A stretch of 64,000 bases of DNA from Escherichia coli O127:H6 str. E2348/69 (GTDB lineage: Bacteria; Pseudomonadota; Gammaproteobacteria; Enterobacterales; Enterobacteriaceae). The DNA lies in the NCBI RefSeq assembly GCF_000026545.1, contig NC_011601.1; one strand, given 5' to 3'. Below are positions 1,966-14,092 of the stretch, one piece after another (positions within the stretch are counted from its first letter, which is position 1; the number at the start of each line of letters is the position of its first letter). Below the pieces are notes generated by a model. That model worked only from the letters and a program-made list of their open reading frames with translations, was not told the origin of the DNA and made no database searches. The position numbers were made by a program, and so were the translations under genes.

Positions 1966-2566
1966 TTCGTTGTTACCACCATCAGCCAGCAATTTCATGC
2001 GTTGTGCCGAAGCCGTCGGAACACGCATTACAGACATTCCGGTAGACCTCAACACGCTGTGGTCGCCGGACACCTGCCCGGTGCATCTGCTGCCTTATCT
2101 CGCCTGGGCATTTTCCGTTGACCGCTGGGATCGCAACTGGCCGGAAGAGACAAAGCGACAGGTGATTCGTGATGCATGGCTGATACACCGACACAAAGGG
2201 ACCATCAGCGCACTGCGAAGAGCCGTGGAGCCTCTCGGCTACCTGATTGAAGTAAAGGAGTGGTGGCAACTCAACGAGGAACCGGGAACATTTCGCATTG
2301 TTGTCGGAGTACTTGATCAGGGCATCACCGATGAAATGTATCAGGAACTTGAGCGCCTTATTGCGGATGCAAAACCAGTAAGTCGCCATCTGACGGGGCT
2401 GGCGATCAGCCTGAGTGTGAACGGAAAGATTTTCGTTGGTACGGGATGCTATCACGGCGATGCCCTGACGGTTTATCCCTACACCCCGGAGTCCATTATT
2501 GTCGAAGGGGATTATTTCCCTGCCCCAGCCATTCATTTAATTGATAATCTGAGAGTAAACGCATGA
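1958..2566 (+). CDS. tail protein, P2 gpI-like
   Basis: ORF 1925..2566; in-frame ATG at 1958 overlaps J stop; size and position match P2 I. Confidence 0.75.
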   Translation: MSNSLLPPSASNFMRCAEAVGTRITDIPVDLNTLWSPDTCPVHLLPYLAWAFSVDRWDRNWPEETKRQVIRDAWLIHRHKGTISALRRAVEPLGYLIEVKEWWQLNEEPGTFRIVVGVLDQGITDEMYQELERLIADAKPVSRHLTGLAISLSVNGKIFVGTGCYHGDALTVYPYTPESIIVEGDYFPAPAIHLIDNLRVNA

Positions 2567-4128
2567 CAGTGAAATACTACGCCATTCTGACTAATCAGGG
2601 CGCGGCACGACTGGCTAACGCGACGATGCTCGGCAGTAAGCTGAATCTGACGCAAATGGCCGTTGGTGATGCAAATGGTGTGTTACCAACACCAGACCCT
2701 GCACAAACAAAACTGATTAACCAGAAACGCATTGCACCGCTGAATCTTCTGAGTGTTGACCCTAACAATCAGAGCCAGATTATTGCGGAGCAAATCATCC
2801 CTGAAAACGAGGGAGGATTCTGGATCCGTGAGATTGGTCTTTATGATGATGAAGGTGTACTCATTGCGGTGGCAAACTGCCCGGAAACGTACAAACCGCA
2901 GTTGCAGGAAGGCAGTGGACGCACCCAGACTATCCGCATGATTCTGGTTGTCACGAACACCGAAGCCATCACGCTGAAAATCGACCCGTCTGTGGTTCTG
3001 GCAACCCGCAAATATGTGGATGATAAAATCTCAGAGCACGAACAGTCACGACGTCACCCGGACGCCTCGCTGACCGTAAAAGGTTTTACTCAGTTAAGCA
3101 GTGCAATTAACAGTGAATCAGAAACACTGGCCGCAACACCGAAAGCGGTTAAGGCTGCATATGACCTGGCTAACGGGAAATATACCGCCCAGAACGCCAC
3201 CACTACACAAAAAGGAATTGTTCAGCTCAGTAGCGCCACGAACAGCACGTCTGAAACGCTGGCAGCGACACCAAAAGCTGTTAAGGCGGTAATGGATGAA
3301 ACGAACAAGAAAGCACCATTAAACAGCCCGGCACTGACCGGAACGCCAACAACACCAACAGCGCCACAGGGGACTAATAGTACCCAGATCGCAAGCACGG
3401 CTTTCGTTATGGCCGCGATTGCCGCACTTGTAGATTCGTCACCTGATGCACTGAACACGCTGAACGAACTGGCTGCGGCGCTGGGCAATGACCCGAATTT
3501 TGCGACCACCATGACTAACGCGCTTGCGGGTAAGCAACCGAAGGATGCCACCCTGACGGCGCTGGCAGAGCTTGCTACATCAGCAGATAAACTCCCATAT
3601 TTTACAGGGGCAGATCGTGCCGCGTTAACCGCGTTGACAAGTGTTGGACGTGCCATTCTTGGTAAAACCAGCACTCAGGGAGTTCTTGATTACCTTGGTT
3701 TGGGGGAAGGCTCTGCACTGCCCGTTGGTGTGCCCGTTCCGTGGTCCTCAGCAACACCACCAACGGGCTGGCTGAAATGTAACGGTGCAGCATTTTCTTC
3801 TGAAATGTATCCCAGACTGGCAAGGGCTTATCCCACCAATAAATTACCGGATTTACGCGGTGAATTTATCCGTGGCTGGGATGATGGGCGCGGGATTGAT
3901 GCGGGACGTACCCTGCTTTCAGGGCAGGATGGTACAAGTTTTTCTCATTACGGAGGTAATTTCGACATTGGGTCTGGTCATTCAATCAATAACTATGACC
4001 AAATTGTTTCTAACCAACCAGGCTTTTCCCGTTTTTCATTTGCAGGGCCTTCACGAGGTGATGGGGTTAATTATGTAACCATTCGTCCTCGTAATATTAC
4101 GTTTAATTACATCGTAAGGGCAGCATGA
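2563..4128 (+). CDS. tail fiber protein, P2 gpH-like (constant N-terminal part fused to C-terminal cassette A)
   Basis: 521 aa ORF; internal duplicated SETLAATPKAVKA motif typical of tail fibers; C-terminal 140 aa begin with the GLGEGSALPVGVPVPW repeat shared with two other cassettes. Confidence 0.85.
   Translation: MTVKYYAILTNQGAARLANATMLGSKLNLTQMAVGDANGVLPTPDPAQTKLINQKRIAPLNLLSVDPNNQSQIIAEQIIPENEGGFWIREIGLYDDEGVLIAVANCPETYKPQLQEGSGRTQTIRMILVVTNTEAITLKIDPSVVLATRKYVDDKISEHEQSRRHPDASLTVKGFTQLSSAINSESETLAATPKAVKAAYDLANGKYTAQNATTTQKGIVQLSSATNSTSETLAATPKAVKAVMDETNKKAPLNSPALTGTPTTPTAPQGTNSTQIASTAFVMAAIAALVDSSPDALNTLNELAAALGNDPNFATTMTNALAGKQPKDATLTALAELATSADKLPYFTGADRAALTALTSVGRAILGKTSTQGVLDYLGLGEGSALPVGVPVPWSSATPPTGWLKCNGAAFSSEMYPRLARAYPTNKLPDLRGEFIRGWDDGRGIDAGRTLLSGQDGTSFSHYGGNFDIGSGHSINNYDQIVSNQPGFSRFSFAGPSRGDGVNYVTIRPRNITFNYIVRAA
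3685..3710 (+). promoter_or_regulatory. putative invertase crossover site A (hix/gix-like) at start of cassette A
   Basis: Sequence ...ccttggtttgggggaagg... marks start of ~225 bp repeat; weaker dyad than site B. Confidence 0.4.
3695..3920 (+). repeat. repeat copy A (~225 bp, direct) encoding conserved N-terminal 75 aa of tail-fiber C-terminal cassette
   Basis: Near-identical to 4134..4360 (direct) and reverse complement of 5475..5696. Confidence 0.85.
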
Positions 4129-4149
4129 AAACGTTGGTTTGGGGGAAGG
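4124..4149 (+). promoter_or_regulatory. putative invertase crossover site B (hix/gix-like)
   Basis: catGAAAACgtTGGTTTggggg resembles the AAACC..GGTTT dyad of Hin/Gin sites as recalled; sits exactly at repeat boundary. Confidence 0.45.
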
Positions 4150-4360
4150 CTCTGCACTGCCCGTTGGTGTGCCCGTTCCATGGCCCTCAGCCACGCCGCC
4201 AACGGGATGGCTGAAATGTAACGGCGCAGCATTTTCTTCTGAAAAGTACCCAAAACTGGCAAGGGCTTACCCCACCAATAAATTACCAGACTTACGCGGT
4301 GAATTTATCCGTGGCTGGGATGATGGGCGAGGAATTGATGCGGCACGCGCTTTATTGAGC
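4134..4360 (+). repeat. repeat copy B (direct relative to A)
   Basis: Sequence identity with copy A visible by eye over about 225 bp. Confidence 0.85.
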
Positions 4361-4615
4361 ATTCAAAACGGGATGTTGGAAAAACACCGCCATATTGTTG
4401 TAGCTAACGATGGATATGACACAAAGGATGAATGGGAGTTGGCCACGATTTTCAAAAAAACATATACGCAAGGCAGGGGGCTTGATGCCACAAATACAGG
4501 AGGGAGTTTGATTCCATCACCAACGCTTCATTCACGAGGAAGTATTGGTAACACAGGTGGTAGTGAAACCCGCCCCCGCAATATTGCATTTAACTATATC
4601 GTGAGGGCGGCTTAG
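4139..4615 (+). CDS. alternative tail-fiber C-terminal cassette B (promoterless, lacks fiber N-terminus)
   Basis: 158 aa ORF begins MGEGSALPVGVPVPW and ends PRNIAFNYIVRAA, same architecture as C-terminus of gpH. Confidence 0.6.
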   Translation: MGEGSALPVGVPVPWPSATPPTGWLKCNGAAFSSEKYPKLARAYPTNKLPDLRGEFIRGWDDGRGIDAARALLSIQNGMLEKHRHIVVANDGYDTKDEWELATIFKKTYTQGRGLDATNTGGSLIPSPTLHSRGSIGNTGGSETRPRNIAFNYIVRAA

Positions 4616-4621
4616 TTATAT

Positions 4622-5233
4622 TCAACTGGCTGCTGCCAGTGGTATTTCCGGCAAGTTGATATCTGGTGCCATGTTTATATCCATTGCGTTCAGCGCGTCT
4701 ATATAATCCAGCACGGCATTAAGCCGGGTGGTTTCTGCCTGCGTCAACTTCCGCCCGGCCTGCAACTTCAACTGAATCAGACTTATGGAAGCCATTGCCG
4801 CATCAGCCAGTGACTGGCGCTTGGTTTCTGCCGCTTCTACTGCAGCACGATGTTGTGCCTCAGTATCTGTCACCCATTTTTCACCATCCCATTTATCGTA
4901 TGGTGTTAACGGGGCGATAGTGGTTGTATTTTTCGGGTAGTCACCCAGCGCCGTGATTTCTTCGGTGTTTCCCGTGTCAGTGCTATAGACGGTTTCACCA
5001 CGATGGTCTGGCGCATACTCCCATGAGCTTAAATTCTCCGAACGGCGGATAGCATAGCCCGCTTTATGTGCGCCCGGGGCATCTAAACAGGAATTTGCCG
5101 GAATACCGACACCCACAGCAAGATATTCAGTTGATTCGGAAATATATTCCCGTGTCTCACCATCATAGTTATAAACGACGATGTTTCCTGCCTGTACGGC
5201 AATAAGGTCATCATTTAATATCGCGTTATTCAT
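4622..5233 (-). CDS. tail fiber assembly protein (Tfa/gpG-like chaperone)
   Basis: 203 aa ORF immediately downstream of cassette C on minus strand; size and position typical of Tfa. Confidence 0.65.
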   Translation of the reverse strand: MNNAILNDDLIAVQAGNIVVYNYDGETREYISESTEYLAVGVGIPANSCLDAPGAHKAGYAIRRSENLSSWEYAPDHRGETVYSTDTGNTEEITALGDYPKNTTTIAPLTPYDKWDGEKWVTDTEAQHRAAVEAAETKRQSLADAAMASISLIQLKLQAGRKLTQAETTRLNAVLDYIDALNAMDINMAPDINLPEIPLAAAS

Positions 5234-5700
5234 TATGCGGTTCTCACAATATAATTGAAGGCAATATTGCGTGGGTGGGTTTCATTCCCCTCTGAGGATT
5301 CCGTTCTGTATTGACTGGTAAATCTACCGTTAATTGCACCTTGCCGGACGGCGTTATCTGTCGACAACAGACTATCCCCTCCTTTGTCATTTGGCACCAA
5401 CACCGTGTTATCCCACGCATCCCATGACCGAATATTATGATAATGACTTCCTGTTAACCACCCCTGCATGCTTAAGATGCCCCTTCCGGCATCCACCCCG
5501 CGCCCATCATCCCAGCCACGGATAAATTCACCGCGTAAATCCGGTAATTTATTGGTGGGGTAGGCCTTTGCCAGTTTTGGGTACATTTCAGAAGAAAATG
5601 CTGCACCGTTACATTTCAGCCACCCTGCTGGCGGTGTGGCTGAGGGCCACGGAACAGGTACACCAACGGGCAGTGCAGAGCCTTCCCCCAAACCAACGTT
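5233..5700 (-). CDS. alternative tail-fiber C-terminal cassette C (inverted orientation)
   Basis: Minus-strand frame encodes GLGEGSALPVGVPVPW...PRNIAFNYIVRTA; the annotated Met upstream is probably not a real start. Confidence 0.6.
   Translation of the reverse strand, partial: NVGLGEGSALPVGVPVPWPSATPPAGWLKCNGAAFSSEMYPKLAKAYPTNKLPDLRGEFIRGWDDGRGVDAGRGILSMQGWLTGSHYHNIRSWDAWDNTVLVPNDKGGDSLLSTDNAVRQGAINGRFTSQYRTESSEGNETHPRNIAFNYIVRTA
5475..5696 (-). repeat. repeat copy C (inverted relative to A and B)
   Basis: Reverse complement of copies A/B. Confidence 0.85.
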
Positions 5701-5706
5701 TTCGTT
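5681..5706 (-). promoter_or_regulatory. putative invertase crossover site C (hix/gix-like), inverted, about 60 bp upstream of invertase gene
   Basis: Reverse complement reads cgAAAACgtTGGTTTgggggaagg; position next to invertase as gixR is to gin in Mu. Confidence 0.45.
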
Positions 5707-5762
5707 TTTATCCCTACCTATACCAACTCTGTATTTTTCACGAAACAAAGAGGATGTTTTTT

Positions 5763-6362
5763 ATGCAAATTGGCTATATTCGTGTGTCAACAAATGACCA
5801 GAACACGGATTTACAACGCAATGCACTGAACTGCGCAGGATGTGAACTGATTTTTGAAGATAAAATCAGCGGAACGAAATCAGCCAGACCGGGATTGAAA
5901 AAACTGCTCAGAACGCTATCAGAAGGAGATACGCTGGTTGTCTGGAAGCTGGACAGACTGGGCAGAAGTATGAAACACCTGATCACGCTTATTGAGGAAT
6001 TGCGGGAAAAAGGTGTTAATTTCCGTAGTCTGACGGACAGCATTGACACATCAACACCCATGGGGCGTTTCTTTTTTCACGTCATGGGGGCTTTAGCCGA
6101 AATGGAACGTGAATTAATTGTAGAGCGTACACTGGCCGGGCTGGCAGCAGCACGCGCACAAGGACGCATTGGCGGACGTCGCCCGAAGTTGACAAAAGAA
6201 CAACACGAGCAAATAGCGAGGCTGATTAAAAACGGTCATGACAGGAAACAACTGGCGATCATTTACGACATCGGCATATCGACGATTTATCGTTATCACC
6301 CTGTAGGCGATATACAGGCTGAAGAAACAACCAGGCAGACTCAGGAAAATAAAAACCGCTAA
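5763..6362 (+). CDS. serine DNA invertase, Gin/Pin/Cin/Hin family
   Basis: N-terminus MQIGYIRVSTNDQNTDLQRNAL and internal VVWKLDRLGRSMKHLI, SLTDSIDTSTPMGRFFFHVMGALAEMERELI match Gin/Hin as recalled; C-terminal HTH region. Confidence 0.9.
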   Translation: MQIGYIRVSTNDQNTDLQRNALNCAGCELIFEDKISGTKSARPGLKKLLRTLSEGDTLVVWKLDRLGRSMKHLITLIEELREKGVNFRSLTDSIDTSTPMGRFFFHVMGALAEMERELIVERTLAGLAAARAQGRIGGRRPKLTKEQHEQIARLIKNGHDRKQLAIIYDIGISTIYRYHPVGDIQAEETTRQTQENKNR

Positions 6363-6384
6363 TCTGACCATTAGCGGTTTTGCG
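6349..6384. terminator. bidirectional hairpin between convergent invertase and gpU genes
   Basis: Inverted repeat accgctaat/attagcggt flanked by A-run on one side and T-rich on other. Confidence 0.45.
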
Positions 6385-6388
6385 TTAA

Positions 6389-6883
6389 TCAAAACAGCCC
6401 TTTAACGGAGCTGGCCGCGCTGTTAAGGGATGATGTGACCTTATCTTTGAAGCCGGACAGCATATCACTGAACGATGAGGATTGCAGGCGCTCCCGCAAA
6501 TCCTCATCACAGCGTTCAAGAGTCAGTGAAAATTCTATCTTTTTCGCCTTACCGTAGCGATCAAACTCGGAACGGGTCGTATTCGTTTCAGTCAGTACAT
6601 ACATGCCGTAAATCTGCCCGACACCATCAATCAGAGGCCAGGGGCGTCCTGTATATGCCTGCGTGGTCAGCAACGAAAGCGACACTTCGCCACCTGTAAT
6701 TTCAGGATAAAGCACGCCGGAAAGCACGATGCGATCATCACCTGCGCCGATATACTGCCAGCTTGCTGAACGGTTAACGCGTTCATTTTTCACATGCCGC
6801 CAGCTTTTGTTTTGCTGTAACTGCTGATGCGGCAATGTGCGCAGCTCAAAAACAAACATGCCGTAGATCATCATCATGGCCAT
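6389..6883 (-). CDS. tail protein, P2 gpU-like
   Basis: 164 aa ORF directly downstream of tape measure gene; size and order match P2 U. Confidence 0.75.
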   Translation of the reverse strand: MAMMMIYGMFVFELRTLPHQQLQQNKSWRHVKNERVNRSASWQYIGAGDDRIVLSGVLYPEITGGEVSLSLLTTQAYTGRPWPLIDGVGQIYGMYVLTETNTTRSEFDRYGKAKKIEFSLTLERCDEDLRERLQSSSFSDMLSGFKDKVTSSLNSAASSVKGLF

Positions 6884-6889
6884 GACTCC

Positions 6890-9733
6890 TCAATCTTTAT
6901 CGTAAAAACTGCCACGTCCGGCACGGTCGCGTCGTTCCAATTCTGCCCTGACCATTTCACCGACCAGTTTCGCCAGTTTGCGGGGATTCTGCGTAACAAC
7001 GTTATGCAGATGAACATGAATTTCACCGCCAAATCCGGAGACAACAGGCTCCCGGTTACGGGAAGTTGCAGGAACTGATGCCACTGGCGATCGTATGGCC
7101 TCCGCCACCGGGCGGGAGCTGGCCGCAACAACAGGGACCAGCGCCGGAGGCAGAGGAGTCGGGACCACGGGTGTGATGTTGATTGCGGAAGCAGGCTTAC
7201 TGACCTGCGCAATCTTCCGCTCCTGCCACTCCCCACGAACAGCAAGTGCGCGGGGCAGATTCTTAAAGACAATATCGCCGGGGCCAATGCGTTTTTTCGT
7301 CTCATCAACCAGCTTACCTGTGTTATCAGCAATTTTGCTGAGTCTGCGTAGCGTACCGGTATTGCTGTCTGTGAGCGGTTTGTTGTCTTTGGGTTTATCA
7401 CCTCCGGTGCCATTGCCATTTTCCACAGGCTTCGGCGGATTGATTTTCGCCAGGTCCCCCTGAAGCAAGGCAACCTTGTCCTGAAGAATGGCCGCACGCT
7501 GTGCGTCTTCGATTTTCTTGCGCGCCCTTTCCGCTTCATCCGGAAGGACGCCAAGTTTTTCAAGTATCCACGCCAGCGTATCCAGTAGCATTTTTGCAGG
7601 CGTCAGAACAAGTTGTAACGCACCGCCAAGAACGTTACCGAATATCTCGCCAGCACTGGTACATTTATCCAGCGTTTCCTTGCTGGACTCCATCGGTGAC
7701 AGCAGCGATTTAAACCAGTTAAACACCTGGCTGATCCCGCTTCCGATTGCGTCAAAAACAGGACCAAACCGTTCAAAGGTTTCGCGCAACGGGGCCAGCC
7801 TTTCCATAATCCCGCTGAACACCCCGGCAAAAAATGCCCTGATGGGATCCCAGTATTTCCAGATAAGAACGGCAGCTCCGGCAAGTGCAGCCACGATAAG
7901 ACCAACCGGACTGAACAGCGCCCCGATAGCGCCTCCCAGTAAAGAAACGGAACCCGTCACCATTCCCCATAGTGCTGGCAGGACCCTGACAGCATTCATT
8001 GATCCGGTCAGGAGAGAAAAACCAAGACGCAGTTTTGCCAGCGGACCAGCAAGCACACCAATAGCCAGCGACAACGAGCCAACCGTTGCAGTCATTGCCA
8101 GCAACGCACCGCCTGCTATCAGTAGCTGGCGCGTCAGTGCCGGATGGGCCTGCGCCAGCGCCGTCACCCTTGATACCACCCGCGTGAGCCACTGCGTGAC
8201 AGAACGCAGCGGACCGTCAATCAGATCTGCAATGCGGATGCGCAACCCTTCCCATGCACTGCCGAGTGATTTCAGATCGCCGTCAAGGTTGTTGGCCATA
8301 ACCTTTGCTGTGCGTTCAGCCTCACCGCGCGCGCCTTCAAGTTCTTTTCTCAGTTTGGGTAAGGAACCGTCACCCGCTGCATCAACGAGCGCCATAAACG
8401 ATGTGAAAGCCTCTTCTCCGGCAATGTCCTTAAAGAACGATACCCGGTCAACTTCCCCGTATTTGCGGGTGGCTTTATAAAGGTCGGCCAGCACATCCTC
8501 CATCGGGCGCATTTTGCCCCCGGCATCCGAGACGGACACGCCCAGCTCTTTCAGAGCTTCTGCCGCCGCCTTTGGCGGTGATGCCAGACGAGCCAGGCTG
8601 GCACGCATTGCCGTCCCGGCATCACTCCCTCTGATGCCCATATTCGCCAGCACGCCAGCCATCGCTGCGGCCTGCTCCAGCGATATTCCCAGCTTACCCG
8701 CCACCGGACCTGCATATTTCATGGTTTCGCCCAGTGCGCGAAGGTCAGTGTTGGTACGGGTAAACGCTGCGGTGAGTGTGTCACCGACCCGGTCCATCTG
8801 GTCAGCAGAAAGGCCGAACTGCGTCAGGATATTTGAGCCAATATCTGCCGTCTCGCCGAGATCCATACCGCCAGCCGTTGCCATGCTCAGCACTCCGGGA
8901 AGCGCAGCCTGAATGGCCTGCGGTGTGAAGCCAGCCATTGCAAGAAATGCCTGCCCACTGGCGGCATCGCCTGCGGTGAACTGCGTTTCAGAGCCAAGTT
9001 TTAACGCCTGCTCACGCAGCGCCTTAAACTGCGGGCTGTTCTGGTCGATTCGCGTCAGCGCCTGAACGCGGGACATCTCTTTGCCGAACCCGATCGCGGG
9101 CTGCAAAAAACGCCCGGCAGCATAGCCGCCCGCCGCTGCCGCACCAATTGCCAGCGCACCACCTGTTTTCAGTTTTCCCGCGGTTTCCTGCGCGCGCGAA
9201 TACCGCTCACGCGCCCGCGTTACACGCGCAAGCGCCTGCCGTTCGCGTTCAAGCTGGTTGTTGTACTGTTCGGTGCGTCTGATGGCCTGCTGGATGGTGT
9301 TATCGCTGCCTGTCAGGGAAATGCCGTGGCGTTTCAGCTCTCCGCCAAGTTCCCGCATTTTCTGAATTTCCCGTGTGCGCGATTCATTCAGGCGTTCAAG
9401 CCGGGTGCTTAACTGCTGCATCAGCTTTTGTTGTTTTTCGCTGAGCACTGTACCCGTGCGTTGTAACTGATTAAGAGCGTTAAGCTGGCGTCGTGCTTTC
9501 AATATGCCAGCATCCGCTTTACTGACAGCGTCACGGGCGCGCTCAAATGAACGCGCCTGACGCTCGAGATTTTTGATCGCCCCCTGCGTTCGCTGGATGG
9601 AGTCACCAAACTGCCCCATCAGGCGGCGGGCGTTTTCGGCAGGCCGGGTCAGCCTGTCAACGGCGCTGAAAGCGACCCGGATATCAAGAGTCTTCATTGT
9701 CTGTATTCCCGCTGCGAAGTGCCGCCCGCTCAC
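6890..9733 (-). CDS. tail tape measure protein, P2 gpT-like (start uncertain: GTG 9733 or ATG 9697)
   Basis: 947 aa ORF, Ala/Gly-rich with hydrophobic segments, follows E/E' as in P2. Confidence 0.8.
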   Translation of the reverse strand: MSGRHFAAGIQTMKTLDIRVAFSAVDRLTRPAENARRLMGQFGDSIQRTQGAIKNLERQARSFERARDAVSKADAGILKARRQLNALNQLQRTGTVLSEKQQKLMQQLSTRLERLNESRTREIQKMRELGGELKRHGISLTGSDNTIQQAIRRTEQYNNQLERERQALARVTRARERYSRAQETAGKLKTGGALAIGAAAAGGYAAGRFLQPAIGFGKEMSRVQALTRIDQNSPQFKALREQALKLGSETQFTAGDAASGQAFLAMAGFTPQAIQAALPGVLSMATAGGMDLGETADIGSNILTQFGLSADQMDRVGDTLTAAFTRTNTDLRALGETMKYAGPVAGKLGISLEQAAAMAGVLANMGIRGSDAGTAMRASLARLASPPKAAAEALKELGVSVSDAGGKMRPMEDVLADLYKATRKYGEVDRVSFFKDIAGEEAFTSFMALVDAAGDGSLPKLRKELEGARGEAERTAKVMANNLDGDLKSLGSAWEGLRIRIADLIDGPLRSVTQWLTRVVSRVTALAQAHPALTRQLLIAGGALLAMTATVGSLSLAIGVLAGPLAKLRLGFSLLTGSMNAVRVLPALWGMVTGSVSLLGGAIGALFSPVGLIVAALAGAAVLIWKYWDPIRAFFAGVFSGIMERLAPLRETFERFGPVFDAIGSGISQVFNWFKSLLSPMESSKETLDKCTSAGEIFGNVLGGALQLVLTPAKMLLDTLAWILEKLGVLPDEAERARKKIEDAQRAAILQDKVALLQGDLAKINPPKPVENGNGTGGDKPKDNKPLTDSNTGTLRRLSKIADNTGKLVDETKKRIGPGDIVFKNLPRALAVRGEWQERKIAQVSKPASAINITPVVPTPLPPALVPVVAASSRPVAEAIRSPVASVPATSRNREPVVSGFGGEIHVHLHNVVTQNPRKLAKLVGEMVRAELERRDRAGRGSFYDKD

Positions 9734-9947
9734 GCCAGCTAACCACTTCGCCGGGAGTCATCATGAAGATTTCGGCGGGCGACCAGTTAAAAATGGTGGC
9801 AATATCCGCCACCAGATCTTCGATGTGCTCAAAGCACACCAGGGTGATTACGCTGCCGTCTCCTGCACGCTCTTCGCGCCAGAGTCTGGCTCGCTCATAA
9901 AATTTACAGCCACAGCGCACAACTGAATAAAATCGCGTGACGACATT
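9684..9947 (-). CDS. gpE' extension, expressed as E+E' fusion by programmed -1 frameshift
   Basis: Overlapping frame downstream of an A-run (ttaaaaaaatg) inside E; C-terminus ...NTDNEDS typical of E+E'. Confidence 0.5.
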   Translation of the reverse strand, partial: NVVTRFYSVVRCGCKFYERARLWREERAGDGSVITLVCFEHIEDLVADIATIFNWSPAEIFMMTPGEVVSWRERAALRSGNTDNEDS

Positions 9948-10222
9948 TTTTTAATCATCACTTCATCCAGTTGTGGCGAGGTCACGCGAGGCAACAGCGT
10001 GAACATGGTATCCGCTTTCAGATTCAGCACATCAGACAGCGACAGACCACGCAGGGATCCCGCCTGCTCAATAGCCCCGGTGATCTCCACATATGTGATT
10101 TTTTCGGCACCACGCTCAATTGGCCGGGAAAGTTTTACACCACGTTCGACAGCCATATCCTCACCTGCCGTCACATCATCCGCTACGGTGTTATTCCGGG
10201 TTTCAGTATCGATATTTTTCAT
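9848..10222 (-). CDS. tail assembly chaperone, P2 gpE-like
   Basis: ORF between FII and T; N-terminus MKNIDTETRNN; paired with overlapping E' frame. Confidence 0.7.
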   Translation of the reverse strand: MKNIDTETRNNTVADDVTAGEDMAVERGVKLSRPIERGAEKITYVEITGAIEQAGSLRGLSLSDVLNLKADTMFTLLPRVTSPQLDEVMIKKMSSRDFIQLCAVAVNFMSEPDSGAKSVQETAA

Positions 10223-10277
10223 CAGTTGTCTCCTTTTCAGTCAGAGGCGACGCACTGCGCCGCCTGCATATTACTTA

Positions 10278-10790
10278 TCAGCCAAGCCCGAGCGCGGAAC
10301 GGATGCGATCGGGCACAATGTCCTTGCCGTCCTTCCGGTAAATGAAGTTCAGCAGGTCAATCTCCCACAACGGACGATCGTTAACACTCAGCTTGTAGTA
10401 GGTGTTTTTAATGGCGTAAGTGTGTGATGTGGCTTCGCCCTGTTTGGCTTCCCCCATATCAATTTCCGTCACACGTCCGCGCATTTCGACTTCATACAGG
10501 TCGCTTTCTGCATCGGTGTAATATTCACCCGCAAAACGCAGCAGCGTGCCGTCAATCGTGCCGCCATACTTAAGGAACAGCTCACGAACTGCGCCCCCCA
10601 TGACAAAGCTCGCATCAAGCGCGGAGTCGTCCAGACCGAGATCAATACTTACCGCCCCCATCATGCCACCACCCCGGTAGCTGTCGGTTTTGCGCGTCAG
10701 CTTAGGCAGGGTGACGGACGTCACCTTACCCACTTCGTTTTCACCATCCACAAACAGCGTAAAAAAGCGAAGATGTTTTGGCACAGCCAT
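10278..10790 (-). CDS. tail tube protein, P2 gpFII-like
   Basis: 170 aa ORF directly downstream of sheath gene. Confidence 0.8.
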   Translation of the reverse strand: MAVPKHLRFFTLFVDGENEVGKVTSVTLPKLTRKTDSYRGGGMMGAVSIDLGLDDSALDASFVMGGAVRELFLKYGGTIDGTLLRFAGEYYTDAESDLYEVEMRGRVTEIDMGEAKQGEATSHTYAIKNTYYKLSVNDRPLWEIDLLNFIYRKDGKDIVPDRIRSALGLG

Positions 10791-11974
10791 CAGGCACCTC
10801 CCAGCACCGCAAATGCGGGTTCAAAGTATTCATCAGTAAACGTCTGGTAAAGCTCCATGTCTTCCAGTGGCGGAACGGGCGTATATTTGTAGCGAATACG
10901 CACACGCCCCTGACGTAAATCCGTGGTGCTGTTATCCACCACGTCATACCAGCACTCCGCGCCAATCAGTTTCCCGGCAGTCACCAGTGAATCCAGTTTT
11001 GCCCTGATGGCACTGATAACATCCTTCACGTTCGCAGGCGTCAGTGGACTGTCGATGGTTTCAAACTGCGCTTCCGCAATTGAATCAGCCAGCACCTGTG
11101 CGGTTCGGGTATACACCTCAAAGATGTAGGCGTTCGTTTCCGGTGTGCGGTTGCCCCAGAAGCGGAACCCGTTGCGACGAATAATGGTCGTGATTTCTTT
11201 GTTGTTGAGGCTGTTGGCATCGCTGTCTTCGGCCTGCAACGACCAGAACACATGCCTCGACATCCCCAGCACATTTTTAACCGGAACGTTGGACAGTGAT
11301 TTGTGCCAGCCCTGCTCATGGTCAATGTACGCACGAAGGCCGCACGCATAGGCAGGCGCGGGGAACGTTTCGTTTTTGCCACTTTTCGGGTTGTAGGCGA
11401 TGAAGTCCGGCCATAAGAGCATCACCTCACGTTCGTTGAATTTCTGGCGGTAGGTAATCGCATCAGCCATCGTGTCACAGCCATGACATGAGGCATACAC
11501 AAACGCGCGCAGTTTACCCGCAATCACGCACAGGGATTTTGTCACCGCCTCCGTGTCCAGCTCCGGCGCGGCCAGAATACGCGGACGGTATCCGATGCTT
11601 TCATCCTGCTCTGCAACAAGCAGCGCATACATCCCCGTATAGCTGCCGTCAGATTCAGAACCACCGATAACCAGTTGATCCTGCGTCTTTCCGTCTTCTT
11701 CTTTGTGTTCAGCCACGCGAACGACGATCACCTTTGTGCTCACCTGGTCTGCGATAGCCTTAAGCGCACGATAAAGCGTCCCCGTTGTCCCGCATTTTCC
11801 CAGCACGTCATTGACGCGGGTCAGCAGTGTGGGCTTGTTCAGCGGGAACAGCTTCGCGTCCGCATCATCCGCCGTTGCCACGATACCGATAACACTGGAA
11901 TCAACATCATTAATCGCTGTTACCAGGTCGGTATTTTCCGTAACACGGGCACCATGAAAACGAGTTTCACTCAT
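10790..11974 (-). CDS. contractile tail sheath protein, P2 gpFI-like
   Basis: About 394 aa from internal Met MSETRFHG of 452 aa ORF; position before FII. Confidence 0.8.
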   Translation of the reverse strand: MSETRFHGARVTENTDLVTAINDVDSSVIGIVATADDADAKLFPLNKPTLLTRVNDVLGKCGTTGTLYRALKAIADQVSTKVIVVRVAEHKEEDGKTQDQLVIGGSESDGSYTGMYALLVAEQDESIGYRPRILAAPELDTEAVTKSLCVIAGKLRAFVYASCHGCDTMADAITYRQKFNEREVMLLWPDFIAYNPKSGKNETFPAPAYACGLRAYIDHEQGWHKSLSNVPVKNVLGMSRHVFWSLQAEDSDANSLNNKEITTIIRRNGFRFWGNRTPETNAYIFEVYTRTAQVLADSIAEAQFETIDSPLTPANVKDVISAIRAKLDSLVTAGKLIGAECWYDVVDNSTTDLRQGRVRIRYKYTPVPPLEDMELYQTFTDEYFEPAFAVLGGA

Positions 11975-12131
11975 AGCTTCAGCCCCTTGTATCCGTAAAA
12001 TGATTCGGCAACAATCATCACCCACCACGCGCGTAATCTCACCCCTGCGCCGTTCTCCCGACCCGGCGACAACAAAAAGCAGTAACCCCCTCCGCACGCA
12101 CATGCGACCATGCCGCACAGGGAGGGAACAG

Positions 12132-13232
12132 ATGACCGATACCACCATGCAATTGCTCAGTCAGGGCACAGACCCCGTGAAAATGCCGGATTTTGATATT
12201 CTCGCGGAGGGTAAAACGCTGTCAGGCGTGGCAGAGCGCCTGATGAGCCTGTCACTGACCGACAACCGGGGATTTGAGGCGGACCAGCTCACCATCACGC
12301 TGGATGATGCGGATGGTCAGTTGCAGCTACCGCCACGGGGCGCGCGCCTGACGGTTCTCATTGGCTGGAAAGGAGAACCGCTGACAGAAAAAGGCACTTA
12401 CATTGTTGATGAAATCGCTCACGAAGGACCGCCGGACAGGCTGACTGTTTCAGCCAGAAGCGCAGATTTTCGGGATGAATTTAACGTTAAACGTGAGGTG
12501 TCCTGGCATGATGTGACCGTTGAGCGCGTGGTATCTGCCATCGCTCATCGGTACGGTCTGAAACCGCAAATCAGCGAAATACTGATGGATATCGAAATCG
12601 ACCACGCCGACCAGACCGAAGAAAGCGACATGTCCTTCCTTACGCGCATGGCGGAAATGCTGGGCGCAATCACCACGGTAAAAAGCGGTAATCTGTTATT
12701 CATCATGCCAGGCGGTCGCGTGAACGCACTGGGCCAGCCGTTGCCATCGTTCGCCATCACACGCAGCAGCGGCGATCGCCATCAGTTCCGCATTGCTGAC
12801 CGCGAGGCGTATACGGGTGTACGCGCCTACTGGCTTGATCTTAATTACGGGAAAAAGAAAAAAGTCAGCGTGAAACGCCGCAAACCGAAAAAAGAGAAAA
12901 GCAGCAGCCGTGAAGGTGACTATATGGAAGGTGCGGAAGGCAACGTGTTTGTGTTACGCAAAACTTATCAGAACGAGCAGGCAGCAAGACGCGCAGCGGC
13001 GGCAAAATGGCAGCAGCTACAACGCGGAGCCGCATCATTTTCCATCACGCTGGCACGTGGACGAGCAGAACTCTACCCCGAAATGCATGGCACGGTAACA
13101 GGATTTAAAAGCGAGATTGATAATCAGGACTGGATCATTGCAAAAGCCGAGCACACCATTGATAACAGTGGCTTTACCACGCAGCTTGAGCTTGAAGCCA
13201 AAATCCCGGAATGGATAGCAGAAACAGAGTAA
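12132..13232 (+). CDS. tail protein, P2 gpD-like
   Basis: About 366 aa from MTDTTMQLL; lysine-rich linker; precedes ogr as in P2. Confidence 0.75.
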   Translation: MTDTTMQLLSQGTDPVKMPDFDILAEGKTLSGVAERLMSLSLTDNRGFEADQLTITLDDADGQLQLPPRGARLTVLIGWKGEPLTEKGTYIVDEIAHEGPPDRLTVSARSADFRDEFNVKREVSWHDVTVERVVSAIAHRYGLKPQISEILMDIEIDHADQTEESDMSFLTRMAEMLGAITTVKSGNLLFIMPGGRVNALGQPLPSFAITRSSGDRHQFRIADREAYTGVRAYWLDLNYGKKKKVSVKRRKPKKEKSSSREGDYMEGAEGNVFVLRKTYQNEQAARRAAAAKWQQLQRGAASFSITLARGRAELYPEMHGTVTGFKSEIDNQDWIIAKAEHTIDNSGFTTQLELEAKIPEWIAETE

Positions 13233-13426
13233 ACAACTTAGATGCATTAGCCCTGACATTTGCTAACGCGCTTACAGCAAGAATCATAACCAATCTGACA
13301 GCCTACCCGGTGTCAAAATCAGAAGAGCCTTACATTAGAATATGTTAATTTGTAGCAAACAAATTTACACACAAATGATTACTGCTGAAATAGCCCCCAT
13401 AAATGCCATGTCAAAGGATCCATGTT

Positions 13427-14092
13427 ATGAATATGCAAATTTTTATCGCACCAGCAGCCACAGTTGCTGCAGTCTGCCTTGCTGCATATTTTGCTTTACG
13501 AAATGAACGTAAAAAGAAAGCACTTGAGATTAGAACAACTCAACTAGATCGAATATCTGAGCTAGTAAACCGAGCATCTACCAATTTGATGCAATATACA
13601 GGTACTCTTGCCTCTATACTGGAAGCGCACGCCAAAGATAATTATCTACCGAACAAAAAATTTGACATTAATGTAATTAGCAAATGGAAAGATTGCCTCG
13701 ATGAGAGTGAGGTCTGGGCGATTGATATACAGCAACTAAGAACATGTCAGCACAGTCTGGAGTTTCATCGTGAAAAAGAATGGGCTGAATGGAAAAAAAT
13801 AATTCCACCATTACTTGATAAAATTAACCAATTTTTTCTCATATCTAAGCCAGGGCAACCTGTTACGTTTATAAATGGCCAAAACAAAACAGCTGATGAA
13901 CTACTTGTTTTCTCAAGATATTTGAGAAAACAAACAGCAGAAATTGAATCAGTACGTCAGCTGTTACTTTCTCAAATGAGAGAGGAATTCATCGAGTTAA
14001 CTAGCTTTGAACCTGTCACAATGTTTAGCTTATTTAAATCAATAAAGAAAAATGTCATGCAATTTTTCTGTATCAGTGCTCTTAAAAATTGA
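13427..14092 (+). CDS. hypothetical membrane-anchored protein (N-terminal TM helix), AT-rich insert between D and ogr
   Basis: 229 aa ORF (13403..14092; likely start 13427 or 13433); hydrophobic N-terminus IFIAPAATVAAVCLAAYFAL then charged helical region; markedly lower GC than flanking phage genes. Confidence 0.55.
   Translation: MNMQIFIAPAATVAAVCLAAYFALRNERKKKALEIRTTQLDRISELVNRASTNLMQYTGTLASILEAHAKDNYLPNKKFDINVISKWKDCLDESEVWAIDIQQLRTCQHSLEFHREKEWAEWKKIIPPLLDKINQFFLISKPGQPVTFINGQNKTADELLVFSRYLRKQTAEIESVRQLLLSQMREEFIELTSFEPVTMFSLFKSIKKNVMQFFCISALKN

Follow-up and report, generated by a model that had tools for sequence, protein, structure and literature searches.

How can a phage that keeps three alternative ends for its tail fibre manage with a single gene for a tail-fibre assembly chaperone (Tfa)? 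The question is raised by a 64,000-nucleotide stretch of enteropathogenic Escherichia coli (EPEC) O127:H6 strain E2348/69 (contig NC_011601.1), hereafter the window, whose first 14 kb hold the tail region of a P2-like prophage. The fibre gene of this prophage, gpH (2563-4128, plus strand; Pfam Phage_tail_fib, Phage_fiber_2 and a C-terminal Collar domain), combines a constant 5' part, which encodes the N-terminal fibre domain and the fibre repeats and runs to the first of three crossover sites (2563-3682, plus; PF12571 and PF03406), with an exchangeable 3' end that is at present cassette A (3697-4128, plus; Pfam Collar; the last ~140 residues of gpH). Two silent 3' ends lie downstream, the promoter-less cassette B (4136-4615, plus; listed open reading frame 4139-4615; Pfam Collar) and cassette C (5233-5694, minus; open reading frame 5233-5748; Pfam Collar), with the only Tfa gene (4622-5233, minus; 203 residues) between them and a Min-type serine DNA invertase of the Din family behind them (5763-6362, plus; 199 residues; PF00239 and PF02796 (HTH_7)).

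The answer we propose, to which we give an even chance of being right, is a Tfa which the ends share, which is directed at their scaffold and is probably facultative; its expression would be toggled at each inversion since its gene lies in the pivot segment of the module. The presence of one Tfa for several ends is best read as a trait of the family of Min-type fibre shufflons, and not as a peculiarity of the E2348/69 prophage. Both this type of system and the EPEC locus have already been described, and our contribution is a sharpened question rather than a new kind of element.

Results

Inversion and the orientation of the Tfa gene

A reading made from the sequence alone (hereafter the sequence-only reading) had stated that the Tfa gene follows cassette C only and that cassette A is followed directly by cassette B, and both statements are borne out. 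The ATG of Tfa and the TAA of cassette C overlap (TAATG, 5231-5235), which makes C the only cassette with a Tfa gene immediately downstream; the stop codon of Tfa and that of cassette B (TAG, 4613-4615) stand tail-to-tail, 6 nt apart, and the gap between the stop codon of cassette A (TGA, 4126-4128) and cassette B is 10 nt.

The three cassettes have in common a repeat of ~220 bp (89-92% identity), direct in A and B and inverted in C, and each copy is headed by a 26-bp Din-type crossover site of the common form xxxxxxxAAACG/CC-TT-GGTTTGGGGGAA, so that sites are present in both orientations. Site A, TTCTTGATTACC-TT-GGTTTGGGGGAA, lies within gpH (3683-3708, plus), site B, AGCATGAAAACG-TT-GGTTTGGGGGAA, overlaps the stop codon of cassette A (4122-4147, plus), and site C, AAAACGAAAACG-TT-GGTTTGGGGGAA, has the opposite orientation (5683-5708, minus). 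The reading frame over the core is the same at all three, which leads to predicted isoforms of 521, 537 and 531 residues. Fusions of the H::B and H::C types are observed in relatives (loci L032, L040 and L007), and the constant part of gpH is kept at 99-100% in relatives regardless of the cassette attached to it.

Inversion at this locus has been observed directly. Goldberg et al. 2014 (PMC4272514), by sequencing and PCR of a P2-like prophage locus of E2348/69, described three inverted repeats with two overlapping inversions; four variants were found to coexist, and three alternative C-termini result from them. Our isomer model, in which the DNA between sites B and C is treated as a single pivot segment made up of the B insert, Tfa and the C insert, and inversion is admitted solely between oppositely oriented sites, likewise yields four isomers upon enumeration: the present state, H::A with Tfa(-); H::A with C and Tfa(+) downstream, reached by one inversion between sites B and C; H::C with Tfa(+); and H::B with Tfa(-). 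The topology gives an expected A:B:C proportion of 2:1:1. A contig from IMG/VR (L007), with one base different in the compared segments, is the isomer expected from inversion between sites A and C (H::C, Tfa(+), b(-), a(-)), and its rearrangement breakpoints fall exactly at the crossover sites. Loci L007 and L040 both derive from the 28-kb IMG/VR contig UViG_2695420596_000005, which carries an H::C-type junction region together with an H::B junction next to a truncated Tfa, and which is probably an assembly chimera of coexisting isomers.

In the model the orientation of Tfa flips at every inversion. Cassette C is always co-oriented with Tfa when fused to gpH, cassette A in one half of its isomers and cassette B never; the true outlier with respect to Tfa is cassette B, and not cassette A. 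The statement that A has no chaperone in the plus orientation thus holds for the present isomer and ceases to hold after a single inversion between sites B and C, which places Tfa(+) downstream of H::A. The same rule extends to larger arrays, in which the cassette upstream of Tfa would always be co-oriented with it, the cassette tail-to-tail with it never, and all others in half of the isomers. With six sites the model gives 240 isomers, the number reported for the Min system of plasmid p15B, a system described by Sandmeier, Iida and Arber in 1991/1992.

One Tfa per Min-type array

The loci fetched for comparison comprised 80 viral loci, 80 species-representative loci and several E. coli and plasmid loci, in which collar cassettes, Tfas and invertases were mapped by profiles. 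Some 14 multi-cassette arrays were found in P2-like and P1-like elements (the window itself and loci L002, L003, L004, L007, L008, L010, L012, L024, L027, L032, L071, L087 and L088). They hold at least three and up to ~9 collar cassettes and exactly one Tfa each, and this Tfa is always at the junction of plus and minus cassettes (c> <T <c). Array invertases with an alignable start are all of the Min type, MQIGY(I/V)RVST. A spacer of ~55 bp upstream of the invertase, which in the window runs from site C to the invertase start (5709-5762, plus) and presumably contains the invertase promoter, is common to the alignable Min-type arrays except L010 and differs in the classical two-end loci. In most E. 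coli-type loci, which are either such two-end switches or fixed genes, the collar cassette has a Tfa of its own behind it; the two-end loci carry another spacer and a Pin/Cin-like invertase (MLIGYVRVST). The lineage of the invertase thus appears to predict the complexity of the array.

The closest comparison is provided by the Klebsiella P1-like plasmid pMCR_SCKP-LL83 (L087), for which 99% identity between the invertible segment and the p15B min region has been reported (PMC5786510). Its invertase is 97% identical to that of the window, its Tfa 83%, and its array shares insert A at 100%, insert B at 95% and insert C at 92%. We infer from the invertase, the Tfa and the shared cassettes that the E2348/69 module is a Min-type, p15B-like system of multiple inversion grafted onto a P2-type gpH. 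Given the 97% identity of the invertase protein to a Min-type enzyme, a Fis-dependent recombinational enhancer is likely to be present in the 5' part of the invertase gene. The sequence-only reading had taken Mu and P1 as its standard. That every variable end of Mu G and P1 C has its own chaperone is correct, and the E2348/69 module, with one Tfa for three ends, does not conform to that pattern; the proper comparator is p15B Min, where a single Tfa is the rule.

Specificity of the single Tfa

The product of 4622-5233 matches PF02413 over residues 78-198 (109 bits against a cut-off of 22; E=1.9e-31). A search of the 64-kb window with a Tfa profile built from ~150 related Tfas returned no second Tfa, and between 4128 and 5233 there is no plus-strand open reading frame of more than 51 codons besides cassette B.

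The sequence-only reading had called this Tfa the cognate chaperone of cassette C, a description that fails on comparison. Over 82 pairs of collar cassette and Tfa, the inserts have a mean identity of 28% and the N-terminal 100 residues of the Tfas one of 73%, with a Spearman rho of 0.11 between the two; it is to the N-terminal domain of Tfa that fibre binding has reportedly been assigned, by North et al. in 2019. The 42 members of one cluster of Tfa N-domains (90% identity or more) are found with inserts of 14 unrelated types; the Tfa behind the B-type cassette of L065 and that behind the unrelated cassette of L023, for instance, are 97%/94% identical. In classical loci, B-type cassettes with inserts 96% identical carry their own Tfa, of the same family and 66-72% identical to the window Tfa, the family median for the N-terminal part being 67%. 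The last 16 residues of the cassettes (E[TN]RPRNIAFNYIVRAA) do not differ between cassettes with a Tfa of their own and cassettes without one, and no association was found between the presence of Tfa and either the insert class (HxH, GDAIRN or other) or these C-terminal 16 residues.

The Tfa lineage does not track the inserts; on this evidence Tfa does not belong to cassette C alone, and cognate would be the wrong word for it. Since near-identical Tfas follow unrelated inserts, Tfa probably serves the conserved collar scaffold common to all cassettes, in which case one copy could serve any of them. In phage T4, gp37 needs gp38, and the Tfa of lambda can replace gp38, which indicates that proteins of the Tfa family act across divergent collar tips. 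The suggestion that a single Tfa serves all three ends is thus favoured with regard to specificity and meets its difficulty in the geometry of the locus, in which B is never co-oriented with Tfa.

Fold, integrity and exchange of the cassettes

All three cassettes contain PF07484 (Collar) and are homologous to the long-fibre tip gp37 of T4 (2XGF, E=1e-12) and to the short tail fibre 9CUY (E=3e-14). Cassette A is made of the shared collar N-half, a 61-residue insert without HxH motif and the conserved end RPRNITFNYIVRAA, followed by TGA. The variable inserts span 3910-4086 in A, 4349-4572 in B and 5276-5481 in C; those of B (KHRH) and C (SHYH) belong to the HxH class, similar to the metal-binding motifs of T4 gp37 and gp12, and that of A to a different class. 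A third class, GDAIRNI(T/E)G, is found in related arrays and matches the solved structure 9CUY. The C-termini align with that of gp37 (NIAFNYIVRLA against NI(T/A)FNYIVRAA in the cassettes). No intramolecular chaperone of the peptidase S74 type was found: the cassettes stop 14 residues past the insert, in the collar strand, with no further Pfam domain.

Cassettes A and B, which might have been degenerate pseudo-cassettes, are by all sequence indications real and under purifying selection. The Tfa-less cassettes of good assemblies are all intact from the crossover site to the conserved end. The variable part of B-type cassettes, compared between the window locus and diverged copies, shows nonsynonymous divergence (dN) of ~0.02 against synonymous divergence (dS) of ~0.95, and the insert of A is 100% identical, as protein, in the Klebsiella P1-like plasmid (2556-2984 of L087 against 3910-4086 of the window). 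This last identity implies that P1-like plasmids and chromosomal P2-like prophages of different genera have exchanged cassettes recently. Exchange between the array and classical-locus contexts is likewise indicated by the B cassette of the L071 array, which is nearer to the B of classical loci (dS ~0.2) than to that of the window (dS ~0.97). Among independent arrays, the place tail-to-tail with Tfa is taken by no fewer than three different insert types, all of them intact.

The conserved 3' ends of B and C, which flank the Tfa gene, form an inverted repeat of 61 nt (left arm 4554-4614, partner 5234-5294; 77% complementary). This repeat may explain the attachment of Tfa to differing cassettes over evolutionary time. 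Homologous flipping of Tfa alone through it was considered and rejected, the arms being too diverged at 77% identity with a longest exact run of ~11 nt.

In RefSeq the silent cassettes B and C are annotated as free-standing "phage tail protein" coding sequences with TTG starts (4139; 5691/5748) that lie within the crossover site. It is almost certain that neither is an independent gene, and the TTG start of cassette B is a convenience of open-reading-frame calling.

Supply of Tfa in the antisense isomers

Of the four isomers, H::C and one H::A form have the Tfa gene within the late transcript of gpH; in the present isomer (the other H::A form) and in H::B it is antisense to that transcript. 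Read-through from the convergent FI-FII-E-T-U operon into Tfa(-) is unlikely. A hairpin, AAAACCGCTAAT...ATTAGCGGTTTT (6352-6381, minus; a 12-bp stem, then TTTTTATTTT), lies exactly between the stop codons of the invertase (plus) and gpU (minus) and reaches into the final codons of the invertase gene; its T-run is far more pronounced on the minus strand, and it is probably the terminator of the sheath-to-gpU operon. Moreover, P1-like carriers of the same arrays do not have the convergent operon.

No sigma-70-like promoter was found on either strand between 3600 and 7000, and a TTGACA within the 5' end of the invertase, read manually, has no usable -10. The motif TGT-N12-ACA has two matches in the module, at 5385-5402 in the C insert and at 5730-5747 in the spacer of the invertase; as candidate Ogr-type late promoters they were attributed to chance, being misspaced to any -10 and the motif not being found at the other tail operons, upstream of gpV and FI. 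Two of the seven matches of the 64-kb window cluster in this 2-kb module. With a terminator in place, no promoter found and the TGT-N12-ACA matches misplaced, little or no Tfa would be made in the antisense isomers. Ahead of the Tfa ATG, the codons for the conserved ...IVRAA contain a Shine-Dalgarno-like GAGA/GAGG, which means that the translation of Tfa need not be coupled to that of C.

Collar-ended fibres without Tfa

In E. coli-type elements, 87 of the 122 collar cassettes directly precede a Tfa. Among the species representatives, an adjacent Tfa is missing in 52 of the 91 scorable collar-ended genes, mostly those of Xenorhabdus and Photorhabdus. Rahnella laticis, a metagenome-assembled genome (MAG) of Pluralibacter and another MAG have an intact-looking cluster (I, collar-ended H, sheath, tube) with no Tfa within 7 kb on either side, and one of the Tfa-less cassettes in the array of E. 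coli TUM1887 is similar to the Rahnella insert. Since such natural collar-ended gpH genes without Tfa exist, the folding of a fibre without Tfa is plausible in some collar systems. The suggestion that the ends A and B of the E2348/69 fibre may fold without a chaperone gains plausibility from the genes of Rahnella, Pluralibacter, Xenorhabdus and Photorhabdus.

Four Photorhabdus loci (L128, L133, L145 and L158) contain three to four tandem collar-ended fibre genes on the same strand, spaced by ~1-2.5 kb, and only one gene of each series is followed by a Tfa; this looks like a non-invertible counterpart of the "many tips, one Tfa" arrangement.

The surrounding tail genes

Upstream of gpH lie gpV (137-718), W (715-1065), J (1069-1965) and I (1925-2566). 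Beyond the invertase, gpU (6389-6883) and the tape measure gene (6890-9733), then E, tube and sheath, are on the strand opposite to gpH, so that the FI-FII-E-T-U genes (6389-13232) are inverted with respect to V-W-J-I-H and point towards the invertase, whereas gpD (12000-13232) has plus orientation. Such a gene order differs from that of P2, and some similar junctions between invertase and "tail protein" match Xuanwuvirus (P88-like) phages. The prophage appears to end past gpD and an open reading frame at 13403-14092, the remaining ~50 kb looking chromosomal.

Discussion

The model we propose combines the inversion of the module with the action of a common helper. The Min-type invertase would act on the three 26-bp sites and thereby join one of the promoter-less collar tips, in frame, to the constant part of gpH. 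The single Tfa would be a helper common to the cassettes, whose target would be formed by the collar N-half and the ...RPRNIAFNYIVRAA end. The pivot segment would hold Tfa between the variable parts of B and C, and each inversion would flip all of them together. In the antisense isomers the tip would have to fold with no phage Tfa or with traces of it, which is likely to be possible and perhaps less efficient.

Several observations weigh against this model. The sublineage of the window Tfa (78% identity or more) is linked to the C-type cassette in all arrays scored, for which reason an insert-specific use of Tfa within arrays may still be envisaged. Cassette B is never co-oriented with Tfa and no promoter was found for Tfa in the antisense orientation, so that the word shared, taken literally, excludes B unless Tfa is made from that orientation. 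Finally, the natural Tfa-less fibres, which are putatively functional, are mostly those of other genera.

An extension of the proposed model is that the position of Tfa constitutes a second, binary layer of variation, one and the same cassette, be it A or any cassette outside the pivot of a larger array, being made with or without Tfa and B being a dedicated Tfa-independent tip. We regard this extension as a long shot. In Mu, Tfa is reported to stay bound to the tip; if the binary layer existed and Tfa behaved in this way here, there would be more receptor-binding phenotypes than cassettes.

The alternative that survives best, which we hold to be unlikely yet serious, is that no collar tip can do without Tfa. 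Virions of the present isomer, as the sequence-only reading had also envisaged, and those of H::B would then be fibre-defective, infectious particles would arise only from H::C and from H::A after the small inversion, the defect would be tolerated as the cost of the switch, and B would be kept intact through exchange with loci in which it has a Tfa of its own. This explanation accommodates the predominance of cassettes that directly precede a Tfa in E. coli-type elements, the possession of a Tfa by the B-type cassettes of classical loci, and the terminator that stands in the way of a Tfa gene for which no minus-orientation promoter was found. The low dS between the B of L071 and classical B would be a trace of the exchange that it requires, and the dependence of T4 gp37 on gp38 and of P2 gpH on gpG speaks for it too. 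It implies, however, that half of the isomers and one cassette per array are permanently useless, and yet the tail-to-tail position is filled by at least three intact insert types in independent arrays. No array has moved its Tfa outside the invertible DNA, and collar-ended gpH genes without Tfa are found in intact-looking tail clusters.

Could Tfa be needed only by the C-type tip, A and B being self-folding and the asymmetry a matter of design? This is rather improbable in our view. In the related arrays scored, C-type cassettes always precede Tfa, with overlapping stop and start codons, and A-type cassettes were never observed with a Tfa of their own in the loci scored; Tfa-less collar fibres are, in addition, common in nature. 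Nevertheless, this restriction to C agrees poorly with the Tfas of classical B-type loci and with the near-identical Tfas that serve unrelated inserts, and neither a structural class nor a C-terminal signature divides the cassettes with Tfa from those without. The association of C with Tfa can be mere physical linkage, since no crossover site separates them.

It is very improbable that Tfa is made in every isomer, be it from a weak or late promoter on the invertase side, by FI-U read-through or by supply in trans from further copies of the genome or from other prophages. Chaperones act catalytically, and a catalytic amount would be enough; the sheath-to-gpU operon converges on the module, the array-specific spacer beside the invertase is conserved, and Tfa has a Shine-Dalgarno-like sequence of its own. 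Against these stand the 12-bp-stem terminator with its minus-strand T-run between gpU and the invertase, the P1-like elements that carry the same arrays without a convergent operon, the want of a sigma-70-like promoter on either strand of 3600-7000, and the misplacement of TGT-N12-ACA matches whose motif is missing at the other tail operons. A hidden small chaperone gene, an intramolecular chaperone domain and decayed A and B cassettes are refuted by the gaps of only 10 nt (A to B) and 6 nt (B to the Tfa stop) without a further plus-strand open reading frame above 51 codons, by cassettes that end in the collar's own C-terminal strand like T4 gp37 with no extra domain, and by the intactness of all cassettes under purifying selection.

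Several known systems place the shared, scaffold-directed Tfa in context. The Min system of p15B and its P1-like phage-plasmid copies have in common with E2348/69 the Min invertase, the type of 26-bp site, the array spacer, the cassette families, and a constant 5' gene followed by several head-to-tail 3' cassettes with one Tfa in the pivot. They differ in that the module of E2348/69 is carried by a P2-type gpH in a chromosomal prophage, whereas the p15B type is carried by the S gene of P1 on a plasmid, and in that three cassettes and sites give four isomers in E2348/69 whereas p15B reportedly has six, with 240. The G segment of Mu (Gin), the C segment of P1 (Cin) and phage pro483 resemble it by a Din-family invertase located downstream and co-oriented with the fibre gene, by a constant 5' part with alternative 3' ends and by a chaperone of the Tfa/U family inside the invertible DNA. 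These systems, however, have two ends with a Tfa each (c> T> <T x), a pattern found in pro483 and in most of the IMG/VR loci, whereas the E2348/69 module has a pivot with two ends and one Tfa, plus an extra single-cassette segment. With gp37/gp38 of T4 it shares a chaperone of the Tfa family, a Collar domain, an ending in NIAFNYIVR(A/L)A and, in cassettes B and C, an HxH motif; in contrast to T4, its inserts are of 60-85 residues instead of a long gp37 needle, gp57A is absent and the tips are exchangeable through inversion.

The shufflon of the Enterobacter phage FR-phi (Nat Microbiol 2026, PMC13418256) has three C-termini and a Gin-like invertase; its isoforms occur at 50/25/25, only one of them infected the test host, and related loci hold up to six paralogues. 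These frequencies agree with the 2:1:1 of the four-isomer topology. FR-phi is a siphovirus, unlike the P2-like prophage of E2348/69, and the comparison concerns the number and frequency of its isoforms. The P2-type tailocin loci of xenorhabdicin and carotovoricin also have collar-ended main fibres, extra fibre fragments and DNA inversions, and of the collar-ended genes fetched from Xenorhabdus and Photorhabdus, most lack a Tfa next to them; the xenorhabdicin loci differ from E2348/69 by the lack of a local invertase, by being tailocins and by more diverged cassettes. The question of chaperone need is raised by their authors too (PMC13280938), in the words "a common chaperone, or chaperone activity is not essential".

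In conclusion, the engineering of phage or tailocin host range usually assumes that each tip travels with its own chaperone. If it is true that one scaffold-directed Tfa, or none, suffices, retargeting would need only the swap of an insert of 60-85 residues. Min-type arrays constitute a natural experiment, in which the same cassette is found with the Tfa gene sense or antisense according to the parity of inversion. Do collar-type tips need a Tfa at all? It is to this question that the arrays offer a clean natural test.

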